Shown: piece by piece, positions 355-51,567 of the stretch
Numbering within the stretch: position 1 is the stretch's first letter
How the letters are laid out: every line of letters begins with the position of its first letter
Assembly (NCBI GenBank): GCA_039091255.1
Contig: JAWCMQ010000001.1
Coordinates: 117,976-169,542 of the forward strand
Direction: 5' to 3'
Length of the DNA: 51,567 nt
DNA from: Candidatus Aenigmatarchaeota archaeon
GTDB lineage: Archaea > Aenigmatarchaeota > Aenigmatarchaeia > GW2011-AR5 > JACRAC01
Translations under genes and position numbers: made by a program
Notes under the pieces: generated by a model
What the model saw: only the letters and a program-made list of their open reading frames with translations
Databases searched by the model: none
Told to the model about the DNA's origin: nothing

Positions 355-1326
355 TCACGATGCCTGCTCAAGCAGTTTCTCGACGTCCGCCGCATTCACG
401 AACGGCTTGCTCCATCGGTCGTCCATTAGCCTTGGGCATGCCGTGTTTATAAACGCATCGGCAGAGATGCCAGCGAGCGCAGCGTCTGTGATCTTGTCCA
501 TAACTACGATGAAAGCCTTTTTATCTTTGCGCTCGAGCGCCGCTTTAATCTCCAGAGCGCGCGCCATGTTCATCTGGCCAGGCTTCGTCGATACAAGTAT
601 CGCAAACGTTCGTCCGTCCTTTGCGCGAGCGATGCGCGCCCAGCGTATCTTCTCCCACTTCGCTATGTCGCTTCGCACGTCCCGGATCTCGCTACGCTCC
701 ATGTCGAGAAAATAATCGCATCTGAACCCGCGAGGATGGAACATGCCTGAGCCAACAAAGAGTAAAGCATCCACTTTCCCTAACAGCGCTTCTGCGCTTT
801 TCGCCCAGCATCCTAGCACATATCCGCCGATTTCAGTGGATTTTCCAGCAACTCTGAAAATCTCGGCGATTTTCGGCAATGCGTGCAAGTATTGTACAGA
901 AGAAACGATTCCGATGCGCTTTTCTTTTATCTTGCTAATTTCGCCGGTAAGCCTCTTTTCGTCGATGGGACTGTCAACGGGCCATTCGTAATGTACGAGT
1001 GGAATGTCAGTTTTTATAGGCACATAAAAGGGTGCGTGCCCGACATGAAGGATGGCGTCGATTTTTTCGCCGGCGCTTTTTAGTGCAGCAACGGTAGGCA
1101 TAGGCAAATCGCATGCCCCGAAACAGTCGTCTGCCGCAAGAAAAGCCTGAAAGCCATTCGCTTCGAGCGCTTTCACGACCTCAAGCGCACGTGCTTTCAA
1201 GCCGGCAGGCACCTGCACCAGCAGGCGCGAAGGCCGAGGCCGAAGCGCATCGAGCTTCCCTATAATATTGGCTATGTGATTGGGCATGTGATAGAAAGCA
1301 AAGGAAAAGGTTAAAAGCCGACTCAT
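355..1326 (-). CDS. dph2: 2-(3-amino-3-carboxypropyl)histidine synthase (diphthamide synthesis Dph2)
   Basis: 323-aa ORF with ATG at 1326. Contains the LLVQVPAGLK and DDCFGACD motifs. It is the conserved archaeal neighbour of the rpoL and exosome genes. Confidence 0.75.
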   Translation of the reverse strand: MSRLLTFSFAFYHMPNHIANIIGKLDALRPRPSRLLVQVPAGLKARALEVVKALEANGFQAFLAADDCFGACDLPMPTVAALKSAGEKIDAILHVGHAPFYVPIKTDIPLVHYEWPVDSPIDEKRLTGEISKIKEKRIGIVSSVQYLHALPKIAEIFRVAGKSTEIGGYVLGCWAKSAEALLGKVDALLFVGSGMFHPRGFRCDYFLDMERSEIRDVRSDIAKWEKIRWARIARAKDGRTFAILVSTKPGQMNMARALEIKAALERKDKKAFIVVMDKITDAALAGISADAFINTACPRLMDDRWSKPFVNAADVEKLLEQAS

Positions 1327-12734: not shown

Positions 12735-12937
12735 TGGGCCCGACGGGATATTCGGCGCAGCCGAATAGGCCAGCGAAGCTCTGCTTCAGCTGCGCATTCG
12801 AACCCGCAACAGCCTGCTTTCTTCAGCTTTCCATCAGCGTTTTCGTTGGACGCTGACAGCTCCTTTTCCGCCAGCGCTTTTGCGCTAGCAAAAGGGCTGT
12901 AAGAGGCAGGTACTCTACCAGGTTGAGCTACGGGCCC
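12735..12937 (-). tRNA. tRNA-Lys (CUU) with two introns (81 nt at 37/38; 48 nt in the T-loop)
   Basis: Exons are 12937-12900, 12818-12796 and 12747-12735, giving a 74-nt cloverleaf. The acceptor GGGCCCG/CGGGCCC pairs 7 of 7 and the D stem is GCTC/GAGT. The anticodon stem is CCTGC/GCAGG with loop CTCTTAA. The T arm is GCGGG-TTCGAAT-CCCGT and the discriminator is A. Confidence 0.85.
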
Positions 12938-31039: not shown

Positions 31040-31167
31040 AGCGGAGTAGAGCAGCCTGGAGTGCTCGCGAGGCCCATACAGCCCTTTTGTTCGCTGCGCT
31101 CACGAAAGCGCTGGCGGAAAAGGCTTGTGTTACCTCGAGGTCGCTGGTTCAAATCCAGCCTCCGCTA
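31040..31167 (+). tRNA. tRNA-Met (CAU) with a 53-nt intron at 37/38; A1:U72 is initiator-like
   Basis: Exons are 31040-31078 and 31132-31167. The acceptor AGCGGAG/CTCCGCT pairs 7 of 7 and the D stem is GAGC/GCTC. The anticodon stem is CGAGG/CCTCG with loop CCCATAA (anticodon at 31075-31077). The T arm is GCTGG-TTCAAAT-CCAGC and the discriminator is A. A CAU anticodon could also be Ile2. Confidence 0.8.
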
Positions 31168-50369: not shown

Positions 50370-50436
50370 AAATAAGCTTCGAAAAGCCGCAATATATAGC
50401 TTATTCTAAGCAAGAAACATGCCAATAGCATGCTGC

Positions 50437-50691
50437 TTACGCGAGCTTGAAAACGCTAGCGCCGGGACGAACTTTGCCTGAAACTTTCAAGCCGACGGAC
50501 TGGCCTTTATTCGCTTCGCTAATTGGCTTATGCTCTACTTGCATCGAGTCCACAACCTGCTCTATGCTGCCATCACCGCTCTCTATCAAAATCCTGTCTC
50601 CAGTTCGCAGCGCATCGCTGAGCTCGACGACTGCCACGCCTATCTTGCCGTAAAAGTGCGTGACTTTCCCCACAAGATGCTTTTCAGCCAT
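50437..50691 (-). CDS. translation elongation factor-like small protein (EF-Tu domain 2-like barrel)
   Basis: 84 aa: GKVTHFYGKIGVAVVEL...GDRILIE...QVVDSMQVEHKPISEANKGQSVGLKV. ATG at 50691. Confidence 0.55.
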   Translation of the reverse strand: MAEKHLVGKVTHFYGKIGVAVVELSDALRTGDRILIESGDGSIEQVVDSMQVEHKPISEANKGQSVGLKVSGKVRPGASVFKLA

Positions 50692-50848
50692 GTTCTCTTC
50701 CACATTAACTTATCGCCAGAGCTTTAAATCGTTGTCCGAAGCCCCGCTTGAGAAGGCAAGCTCCATCCGACAAAAGAACCGTATGCTGGGGGCGGATTAA
50801 GTAGCATAGCTTCGAACCACAGACTGCAGTGAACCCTGTGGATTTGGG

Positions 50849-51100
50849 CTAGTAAAGTATTCCTATGGCAATTCCGACAATCCCGATGACTATTGAAAAT
50901 GCACCGACCAATCGCTTATTGCCCTTGCAACCGAGACAGCTTCCCAATCCGAGAGCTATTCCAAGTAGGAATGGCCAATCTCCAAAGAATGCCGTGATAA
51001 AACCCAGAATAGACACGACTATTCCAAGAACCCCGACATACATATATTGGTTCTCGTAATCCTGACTTTGCATGCGGAACACTTTTAGTTGCGCTTCCAT
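50849..51100 (-). CDS. small membrane protein (2 TM)
   Basis: 83 aa with ATG at 51100 and two Gly-rich hydrophobic helices. No family recognised. Confidence 0.4.
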   Translation of the reverse strand: MEAQLKVFRMQSQDYENQYMYVGVLGIVVSILGFITAFFGDWPFLLGIALGLGSCLGCKGNKRLVGAFSIVIGIVGIAIGILY

Positions 51101-51164
51101 CGCATTAGCGGATTAGTCATCGGGCTTCTCCGAGGATGAACCGAGGTTCAAATCCTTTCAGATA

Positions 51165-51521
51165 TGCCGGGGGTCGGATTTGAACCGACGAACCCAATCC
51201 TCACCCTTTGCTTTTCCGTGAACGCTTTTGCGAGCGGAGCGAGCAAACGGGTTCTAAGGGACAAGGTCCCTTAATCGCAATGCGACTTCTGAGCTTCGCA
51301 TTTTCCTAAGCATCGCATGCTTGGCATCTTGCGCCTTTTTCTGTAAGCCCTTTTCCGATTTCATCGGAAAAGCGCTTGCGAAAACGGAAGCATGTTCGCT
51401 GCTTTCCTTTCCGCTAACGCTTGTCCGGAAGAGGTTGCGGAAAACGGAAGCAGACATGCTCCCTTCCTTTCCGTTAACGCTTTCCCCCGGAAAGGGTTAG
51501 ACCAGACTTGGCTACCCCGGC
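51165..51521 (-). tRNA. tRNA-Leu (UAG), 357-nt gene with multiple introns (hand model: four)
   Basis: The 5' end is GCCGGGG-TA-GCC-AAGTCTGG... (51521 downward). The 3' end is GTCGG-TTCAAAT-CCGAC-CCCCGGC-A (51189-51165). The anticodon loop CTTAGGA has its first six residues (C32-G37) at 51310-51305, and in the model A38 is supplied by 51267. Proposed exons are about 51521-51499, 51337-51328, 51311-51305, 51267-51253 and 51197-51165. Gene presence has high confidence and the exon map moderate. Confidence 0.7.
51361..51480 (-). repeat. tandem approximately 60-nt duplication inside tRNA-Leu intron 1
   Basis: Unit 1 (51480-51421) is GCGTTAACGGAAAGGAAGGGAGCATGTCTGCTTCCGTTTTCCGCAA.... Unit 2 (51420-51361) is GCGTTAGCGGAAAGGAAAGCAGCGAACATGCTTCCGTTTTCGCAA.... 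Each can fold as a long imperfect hairpin (CGGAAAGGAAG/CTTCCGTTTTCCG). Confidence 0.75.
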
Positions 51522-51545
51522 TTAAGTGAACTTTCTTCAGCAGCA

Positions 51546-51554
51546 TATTTAAAA
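51546..51554 (-). promoter_or_regulatory. TATA box for tRNA-Leu
   Basis: TTTTAAATA on the minus strand, centred about 29 nt upstream of the tRNA 5' end at 51521. Confidence 0.55.
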
Positions 51555-51567
51555 GGTGCGCAATCGG

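Follow-up and report, generated by a model that had tools for sequence, protein, structure and literature searches.

A tRNA-Leu(UAG) gene with four probable bulge-helix-bulge introns in a Candidatus Aenigmatarchaeota genome

In the 51,567-nucleotide (nt) stretch of DNA analyzed here (the window), which belongs to a metagenome-assembled genome (MAG) of Candidatus Aenigmatarchaeota, a DPANN archaeon, the minus-strand segment 51521-51165 is a tRNA-Leu(UAG) gene stretched to 357 nt. We conclude, with a probability of about 0.82, that this is a colinear five-exon gene carrying four introns that would be spliced by the archaeal RNA-splicing endonuclease EndA: I1 in the D-loop, I2 between positions 30 and 31, I3 at the canonical site between positions 37 and 38, and I4 in the loop of the variable arm. 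Multi-intron tRNA genes with bulge-helix-bulge (BHB) splice motifs are known, and what appears to be new here is the extreme of four introns in a new lineage. Reviews and the tRNAscan-SE 2.0 paper give a maximum of three introns per tRNA gene (PMC4033280, PMC8450103), which agrees with what an initial annotation of this DNA had taken to be the published archaeal limit, and our full-text literature searches retrieved neither an archaeal tRNA gene with four introns nor any description of tRNA introns in Aenigmatarchaeota.

The gene opens with 25 nt typical of an archaeal class II tRNA (GCCGGGG UA GCC AAGUCUGGUC...) and closes with 31 nt that supply the T arm, the acceptor 3' strand and the discriminator A73, with about 300 nt lying between the two. 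A TATA-box-like TTTAAATA sits just past the stop codon of the upstream TspO gene, as seen in the NCBI MAG contig L001 (GCA_039090995.1). This contig and the Logan assembly L002 (SRR27730040) both contain the identical 357 nt, with flanks that are continuous on either side of the locus. An NCBI protein entered under the name 'Candidatus Aenigmatarchaeota archaeon' matches the flanking phosphoenolpyruvate (PEP) synthase at 100% identity, and the rest of the window holds archaeal housekeeping genes such as those for class I lysyl-tRNA synthetase, aspartyl-tRNA synthetase, Pus10, exosome and proteasome subunits, L21e and Rpb4. When the indices were recomputed, the acceptor halves, T arm, TATA-like box and four 4-bp helices reported in the initial annotation all fell where it had placed them.

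Removal of the four introns leaves an 84-86-nt class II cloverleaf in which, as had been proposed, all restored stems are Watson-Crick, and which displays the features of a class II tRNA-Leu: a variable stem CCC/GGG with loop UUAGU, A73, the anticodon UAG and a D stem GCC/GGC. ARAGORN called Leu(tag) for each of three spliced models, namely the 88-nt product of the initial annotation, an 86-nt product with an orthologue-like D-loop and an 84-nt product in the strict motif register. For the 86-nt product the folding energy is -38.6 kcal/mol (z -3.0), and the minimum free energy (MFE) structure contains the acceptor and T arms. All five exons (21-22, 10-11, 7, 14 and 32 nt) are colinear within the single 357-nt locus, on which grounds we rejected a split or permuted tRNA gene. 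A self-splicing group I or II intron, or another curated RNA family, was likewise set aside, with no match to an Rfam covariance model at gathering score.

We compared the gene with its orthologues. Two of these, L083 and L085, were reached through PEP synthase homologues (79% and 67% identical, respectively) that have the orthologous tRNA gene in their fetched flanks; the others came from a metagenome scan whose pattern combined the anticodon loop with GCGAAGCTCAGAA, common to the 37/38 introns of the window, L083 and L085. The window gene, L083, L085 and the scan matches form a set of 25 distinct orthologues whose sampling is biased by that pattern. A scan of a genome collection with the PEP synthase returned best matches of only 56% identity and no close relatives, synteny is not kept in the relatives located by their PEP synthase, where the tRNA does not lie upstream of that gene, and two viral-collection scans for pattern-independent orthologues gave only chance matches within coding sequence. 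Across the set, the number of introns forms a series. Only the 37/38 intron is present in L083, L091, L094, L101 and L116; eleven distinct sequences, L085, L096 and L093 among them, have the 30/31 and 37/38 introns; and three introns occur in L092 (D-loop, 30/31 and 37/38), in L111 and L120 (with a further intron of ~14 nt after position 8) and in L121. L112 lacks the 30/31 intron, has an extra variable-loop insertion and is cut at its 5' end by the contig end. The closest relative, L092, comes from a different sample and shares the architecture of the window gene minus one intron. Because the interruptions emerge from this comparison, they are defined independently of the hand-built model, and the four sites that the model had named were borne out by the alignment.

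A second, independent four-intron tRNA-Leu(UAG) gene, L110 (Ga0209541_10037827, 240 nt), combines a different set of introns: 52 nt in the D-loop, 13 nt at 30/31, ~42 nt at 37/38 and 47 nt in the T-loop. Its D-loop and T-loop motifs are relaxed (3 of 4 pairs in the central helix) but have long inner helices (8 and 12 bp). ARAGORN called Leu(tag) for L092, L110 and L121 alike once spliced, and L110 shows that the four-intron state is not a one-off.

To score the splice motifs we used a fixed geometry (hBHBh') of an exon helix h, a 4-bp central helix H, 3-nt bulges cut after their second base and an intron helix h', and compared each junction, at fixed positions, with 20000 shuffles of its intron, counting those that reached the observed H and h'. 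An unconstrained BHB scan of 441 nt gave 1934 candidate pairs with a 4-bp helix, and at this density 4-bp helices alone carry no weight at this locus; what stands above chance is the motif in its exact cleavage register at junctions that the orthologue alignment fixes independently. The observed pairing was reached by 0 shuffles for I2, 6 for I4 (11 in the register of the initial annotation), 33 for I1 and 189 for I3, the last count omitting a 6-bp exon helix that shuffling leaves unaltered. The full hBHBh' is present at I2 and I4; I3 has h, both bulges, H and a hairpin offset from H by unpaired nucleotides; and I1 is relaxed. All four introns have either the full motif or a relaxed form with at least one bulge, H and h'. 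The earlier claim that every junction adjoins a BHB motif holds for all four in the cleavage register, with the corrections that I1 is relaxed and that the 4-bp helices cited in support of the claim are uninformative on their own.

The I2 motif consists of h AGG/CUU, H CGCA/UGCG (51333-30 with 51317-14), bulges AG↓A and AU↓G (arrows marking cut sites) and h' UGC/GCA. The 30/31 intron is found in 17 of the 25 distinct orthologues; its H2 element pairs 4/4 with tRNA positions 25-28 in 14 of these 17 and has an A-G mismatch in the remaining three. L085 carries a compensating change, CGCU/GGCG as against CGCA/UGCG in most orthologues, and this covariation supports the 30/31 helix. The site is uninterrupted in six distinct genes that lack the intron. 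I3 combines H CUUA/UAAG (51310-07 with 51273-70), bulges GG↓A and GG↓A, and an intron hairpin AAUGCGA/UCGCAUU; H pairs 4/4, and once I2 is removed h extends to 6 bp, the 5-bp anticodon stem plus one pair. The MFE fold of the I2-spliced local sequence shows the stem, H, the 3-nt 3' bulge and the intron hairpin. This intron is present in 25/25 orthologues, with H2 pairing 4/4 to CUUA. Exon 3, between the two introns, is invariant across the orthologues but was itself part of the search pattern, and its conservation is pattern-independent in L083 and L085. For both I2 and I3 the initial annotation had the coordinates exactly right.

For I4 the motif comprises h UC/GG, H CCUU/GAGG, bulges AG↓A and AU↓U, and h' ACCC(G)UUUGC/GCAAAGGGU, with 4/4 pairs in H, 2 in h and 4 in h' before further pairs past a 1-nt bulge. 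In a MAFFT alignment with five orthologues, I4 is one clean 57-column gap in all five; its removal yields TCCCTTAGTGGGTTC, with a variable arm UCCCUUAGUGGGUUC letter-identical to that of L085, L094 and L116, and the exon 4 sequence ACCTTGTCCCTTAG aligns to the orthologues without a gap. The site had been recognized correctly, but the boundaries first proposed (about 51252-51198) are better moved to 51253-51197, which restores the orthologue-identical variable arm; the earlier register, with its helix CTTA (51258-55) and TGAG (51203-00), keeps 4 pairs in H but has no exon helix and leaves a loop 2 nt longer than that of any orthologue.

I1 is the least regular of the four. Its motif has H UCUG/CAGA (TCTG 51506-03 with CAGA 51343-40), a 5' bulge GU↓C and h' UAA-CCC/GGG(C)UUA, with H 4/4 and 3 pairs of h' in the strict register. 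The region folds at an MFE of -77.8 kcal/mol (z -5.4) with the D stem and the UCUG/CAGA helix retained. Orthologues that are intron-free here carry GGTCAAAGGC or GGTCTAAGGC and read straight through; the D-loop and variable-loop sites are both uninterrupted in L083, L085, L091 and L116. In L092 this site holds an intron of 58-60 nt whose ends match those of I1 (..GGUC↓AGGCCCUUUCCGGAGGAAAGC ... GGGCGUCCAGAA↓AAAGGC), the initial 22 nt of the gene match those of L083, L091 and L092, and the T arm (GUCGG UUCAAAU CCGAC) is identical in L092. Exon 1 perhaps runs to 51500 (C20a) under the orthologue-like register. The D-loop site of the initial annotation (about 51498-51338) stands, but its 5' boundary at 51498 lies 2 nt off the register of the helix cited for it (H 1/4 there) and fits neither register. 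The placement of I2, I3 and I4 is good, and that of I1 is accurate to 1-2 nt, its exact cut sites being predicted ones.

Several observations weigh against the four-intron reading. The 3' site of I1 (AA↓A) falls within a 3x4 internal loop adjoining the D stem, not in a 3-nt bulge, which makes the motif a relaxed one; the strict register leaves the D-loop 2 nt shorter than that of the orthologues, and the orthologue-like register (51499-51339) pairs H only 3/4, as against 4/4 in L092. Local minimum-energy folds miss the I2 motif and the outer part of the I4 motif. Standard detectors do not confirm the unspliced locus as a tRNA: plain ARAGORN, run without introns, reported none at the locus, and Rfam gave nothing at gathering score in the whole window and only chance-level matches (E >= 0.16) in 50370-51567, both outcomes being expected for a gene of this kind. 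No splicing endonuclease or RtcB gene was found in the window or the fetched flanks by Pfam annotation of the encoding contigs. Allowing ARAGORN one intron produced a tRNA-Glu call with a 264-nt intron, which we rejected as a miscall; many orthologues are miscalled likewise.

Table 1. Coordinates of the tRNA-Leu(UAG) gene, its exons and introns, and associated features; positions refer to the window unless a contig is named.
Feature	Coordinates	Strand	Remarks
TATA-box-like TTTAAATA	51546-51553	minus	25-32 nt upstream of tRNA position 1; putative promoter function
Acceptor halves	GCCGGGG 51521-51515; CCCCGGC 51172-51166; discriminator A73 51165	minus	read in the sequence
Exon 1	51501-51521	minus	acceptor 5' strand, U8 A9, D stem GCC, D-loop through G18 G19 U20
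Intron 1 (D-loop)	51338-51500	minus	strict register, 163 nt; alternative register 51499-51339, 161 nt
Tandem duplication (60 nt) inside I1	51380-51482	minus	43-nt copies 51380-51422 and 51440-51482, 81% identical; repeat search
Exon 2 AAGGCGCAAG	51328-51337	minus	A21 A22, D stem GGC, G26, anticodon stem C27-G30; same in L083, L091, L092
Intron 2 AUGCCAAGCAUGCGAU (30/31)	51312-51327	minus	16 nt, full hBHBh'
Exon 3 GCUUAGG	51305-51311	minus	7-nt micro-exon: G31, C32 U33, anticodon U34 A35 G36, G37
Intron 3 (canonical 37/38)	51268-51304	minus	37 nt
Conserved 13-mer GCGAAGCUCAGAA inside I3	51287-51299	minus	read as UGCG AA↓G CUCAGA↓A
Exon 4	51254-51267	minus	A38, anticodon stem CCUUG, U44, variable stem CCC, loop UUAG
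Intron 4 (variable-arm loop)	51197-51253	minus	57 nt; family core AAGCGTTCACGGAAA at 51227-51213
Exon 5	51165-51196	minus	variable-loop U, stem GGG, UUC, T arm, acceptor CCCCGGC, A73; no encoded CCA
Trailer hairpin AAGGAUUUGAACCUCGGUUCAUCCUCGGAG	51128-51157	minus	starts 8 nt after the Leu gene
tRNA-Lys(CUU)	12735-12937	minus	203 nt; previously undetected; located via the core copy at 12865-12879
tRNA-iMet (initiator)	31040-31167	plus	A1:U72, anticodon CAT, C33; one 53-nt intron of the AAGCGYTNNCGGAAA-core family
tRNA-Glu(CUC)	L001 8076-8284, 0.5-0.7 kb past the window end	same as Leu gene	209 nt; two introns

In the mechanism that we propose, a precursor of ~357 nt would be transcribed, EndA would excise the four introns by cutting in two 3-nt bulges 4 bp apart, and an RtcB-type ligase would join the exons into an 84-86-nt tRNA of class II that has A73 and a long variable arm. 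Splicing would have to be stepwise because the I2 motif uses positions 25-28 and 32-34, which the D stem and the I3 motif also need, and the 30/31 intron would have to leave before the 37/38 intron because the exon helix of I3 is the anticodon stem, which I2 interrupts and which can form only once I2 is gone. The relaxed I1 site may imply an endonuclease of broad specificity. Enzymes able to cut non-canonical or relaxed motifs are the (alpha-beta)2 and epsilon2 forms and alpha4 with an L3 loop. DPANN lineages whose EndA carries the L3 loop have more tRNA gene disruption and incomplete predicted tRNA sets (PMC5829648), and removal of one intron before the motif of the next can form has been described for two- and three-intron genes (PMC8450103). 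As to its history, the D-loop intron, shared among the orthologues only with L092, would have grown from ~58 to ~162 nt in the window lineage, with the 60-nt tandem duplication explaining part of this growth, and the variable-loop intron would be specific to the window lineage.

I1 and I4 belong to an intron family with the 15-nt core AAGCGYTNNCGGAAA. The window contains five exact copies of this core (two in I1, one in I4, one in the tRNA-iMet intron and one at 12865-12879), and with up to one mismatch there are 6 matches as against 0.32 expected by chance. Each 43-nt copy of the I1 duplication holds a core, AAGCGTTANCGGAAA (51422-51408 and 51482-51468). A single consensus, nA[A/G]CCCTTTTG - variable hairpin - CAAAAGCGTTnnCGGAAAAGG (nA[A/G]CCCUUU ... 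AAGCGYUNNCGGAAA), fits the alignment of ten introns that come from six tRNA genes of four genomes and occupy four positions (the D-loop, 37/38, the variable loop and the T-loop). Since similar introns of this family occupy different positions in different tRNA genes, as expected of a family that has spread, I1- and I4-type introns were most likely gained through the spread of a mobile or copied intron. A box C/D or k-turn reading of the core was dropped, as neither a C box (RUGAUGA) nor a D box (CUGA) was visible by eye.

Three neighboring tRNA genes are interrupted as well, bringing the sampled total to nine introns in four genes (iMet, Lys, Glu and Leu). The tRNA-Lys(CUU) gene has an 81-nt family intron at 37/38 (12899-12819) and a 48-nt T-loop intron at 59/60 (12796-12749; H UUCG/CGAA); the helix at 37/38, CUCU/GAAG, contains a C34-A mismatch, and ARAGORN called the spliced 74-mer Lys(ctt). 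Both introns of tRNA-Glu(CUC), 50 nt in the D-loop and ~80 nt at 37/38, belong to the AAGCGYTNNCGGAAA-core family. For tRNA-iMet the cut sites are ambiguous: the strict register gives a 9-nt anticodon loop, and H CAUA/UGUG forms in a register shifted by 2 nt.

Against a single D-loop intron excised as one piece, I1 could be a composite in which family elements were inserted into or duplicated within an older intron of ~58 nt, so that inner pieces would be excised separately, at least five cleavage pairs would be used and the same tRNA would result. Both ends of I1 match the L092 intron with ~100 extra nt in the middle, the 60-nt tandem duplication brings in two core copies, and the unconstrained scan offers a BHB-like site within it (intron 51447-51397, H CUGC/GCAG, with an 8-bp outer helix). 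That site has no adjacent inner helix (h' = 0), however, and comes from a scan rich in chance motifs (1934); the MFE fold of I1 uses other pairings, and maturation of the tRNA does not require inner excision, all of which makes the composite improbable in our judgment. We consider it very unlikely that the locus is a decaying pseudogene hit repeatedly by small repeat elements while another gene supplies Leu(UAG). Its 357-nt length and 163-nt D-loop insertion are extreme, standard detectors pass it over, and family elements also occur outside tRNA genes in L083 and L092 and can thus act as a generic repeat; yet the five exons are intact and identical to or compatible with the orthologue consensus, the stems are Watson-Crick throughout, every insertion has a splice motif in the correct register and the same exons recur in orthologues whose intron number runs from one to four. 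The three other interrupted tRNA genes nearby, moreover, mean that insertion is no sign of a dead gene. An assembly chimera or misassembled repeat, to which the repeated motifs and the nearness of the window end might point, is scarcely credible given the two other assemblies with the identical locus and continuous flanks and the shared architecture of L092.

A further idea, which would supplement the four-intron reading and not supplant it, concerns the conserved 13-mer GCGAAGCUCAGAA inside I3. It could be read as another 3' splice signal of the 30/31 type, identical to that of I2, after which comes a cassette resembling an anticodon loop, C U CAG A, and we think it doubtful, though conceivable, that alternative splicing makes use of it. 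The 30/31 5' site would then pair with either the end of I2 or UGCGAA↓G in I3 to include the cassette GCUUAGG (UAG) or GCUCAGA (CAG), and the gene and its clade orthologues might encode two mutually exclusive 7-nt cassettes that give tRNA-Leu(UAG) or Leu(CAG) from one precursor. The hypothetical layout is ...CAAG ↓ (spacer)UGCGAx ↓ GCUUAGG ↓ A(AAA)UGCGAA ↓ GCUCAGA ↓ ... ↓ ACCUUG, and the choice of cassette would tentatively depend on which UGCG element pairs with tRNA positions 25-28. The 13-mer occurs in the window, L083 and L085, the three genes found without using it, but its conservation in L087-L122 was imposed by the search pattern. In 25/25 genes the base preceding GCG pairs with tRNA position 28 (U with A28, G or A with U28), and the six genes without a 30/31 intron all have a 2-5 bp inner helix beside H, giving a full motif that would excise the UAG cassette. 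CUG is also the commonest Leu codon in the sampled window genes (32%, as against 6% for CUA). On the other hand, the product would have A37, whereas 1-methylguanosine (m1G37) is expected in tRNAs reading CUN codons; the distal helix with CUCA has a C-A mismatch in 11/25 genes, the window included; and forcing this helix gives a minimum energy 3-7 kcal/mol weaker than the unconstrained fold. A C34-A mismatch of this kind also occurs in the sole 37/38 motif of the window tRNA-Lys(CUU), so that such a mismatch would be tolerated if that gene is functional. No stand-alone tRNA-Leu(CAG) appeared in the related loci, which total about 0.3 Mb, far too small a sample to be meaningful. Split and tri-split tRNAs of Nanoarchaeum equitans and Caldivirga maquilingensis likewise join anticodon pieces to a common body through BHB motifs, one half being common to several isoacceptors, but do so in trans from separate loci; here there would be a single transcript, with a cassette choice that is only putative. 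If true, alternative cis-splicing of a tRNA would yield two isoacceptors and represent a new way of diversifying the repertoire of a small genome.

The five-exon, four-intron gene that we favor has its nearest parallels in Thermoproteales. Multi-intron tRNA genes have been described there in Pyrobaculum, Thermofilum and Caldivirga (Sugahara et al. 2007-2008, as cited in PMC4033280 and PMC8450103), and as in the Leu gene their introns are so crowded that formation of the next motif has to wait until one intron is gone. Those genes are crenarchaeal and have at most three introns, whereas the Leu gene would have four, one of them a D-loop intron of ~162 nt, in a DPANN host. The highest published density is 71 introns in 46 genes in P. 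calidifontis (PMC8450103), against 9 introns in the 4 tRNA genes sampled here. Transposed tRNA intron families are also on record from Thermoproteales (Fujishima et al. 2010, as cited in PMC4033280 and PMC4090602); these and the AAGCGYTNNCGGAAA family both comprise near-alike introns at different positions of different tRNA genes, a pattern that implies intron spread inside a lineage, but the latter is distinct in its own conserved ends and 15-nt core and in having copies outside tRNA genes as well. Among algae, three-intron genes include tRNA-Ile(UAU) of Cyanidioschyzon merolae (PMC9602550) and the genes for tRNA-eMet (the elongator methionine tRNA) and tRNA-Cys of another alga (PMC4090602), none with a variable-arm intron in a class II tRNA.

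Four introns would raise the maximum fragmentation of archaeal tRNA genes from three and indicate that an extreme intron load is not confined to Thermoproteales. DPANN tRNA sets are often reported as incomplete, and because genes like this tRNA-Leu(UAG) escape ARAGORN and the Rfam tRNA model, tRNAs 'missing' from such MAGs may be detection failures. An orthologous gene whose versions have one, two, three or four introns could, along with the intron family, serve as a natural series for intron gain, growth and spread. With its 7-nt micro-exon, overlapping and mutually exclusive motifs and relaxed D-loop site, the gene would likewise make a test substrate for the range of DPANN splicing endonucleases.

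Further observations concern individual relatives and the surroundings of the gene. L121 has an intron of ~850 nt near position 26/27 (~240-1090) that contains a 232-amino-acid open reading frame (360-1058) with two LAGLIDADG-like motifs recognized by eye only (IIGHLTFDG and YLQALLDDEG) and no Pfam hit at E <= 0.01. L003, a more distant archaeon whose PEP synthase is 56% identical, has a tRNA-Leu(UAG) at ~1140-1400 with D-loop, variable-region and T-loop insertions and no 37/38 intron, and a neighboring tRNA-Glu(UUC) with a T-loop intron of the AAGCGYTNNCGGAAA-core family. In several orthologues the stretch AUGCGAAGCUUAGG AUGCGAAGCUCAGA forms a 14-nt tandem repeat. Elements of ~190 nt with family ends (CAGCCCTTTT ... 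AAAGCGCTGGCGGAAAA) lie outside tRNA genes in L083 (1094-1900, with elements at 1196-1386 and ~1818-1900) and in L092 (~1050-1250, minus strand, upstream of the PEP synthase gene). Those of L083 lie between repeated copies of a tRNA 3' end (CCCTGGGAGCATT at ~1184, 1386 and 1806), which look like leftover integration sites or duplicated 3' exons. The trailer hairpin that follows the Leu gene has the form AAGGAUUUGAACC(2-3 nt)GGUUCAUCCUC, with a first arm perfectly antisense, over 11 nt, to the T arm GGUUCAAAUCC; a near-identical hairpin follows a different tRNA gene in L083 (1097-1121), and the T-loop intron of L110 contains a comparable GAACC...GGUUCAUC hairpin.

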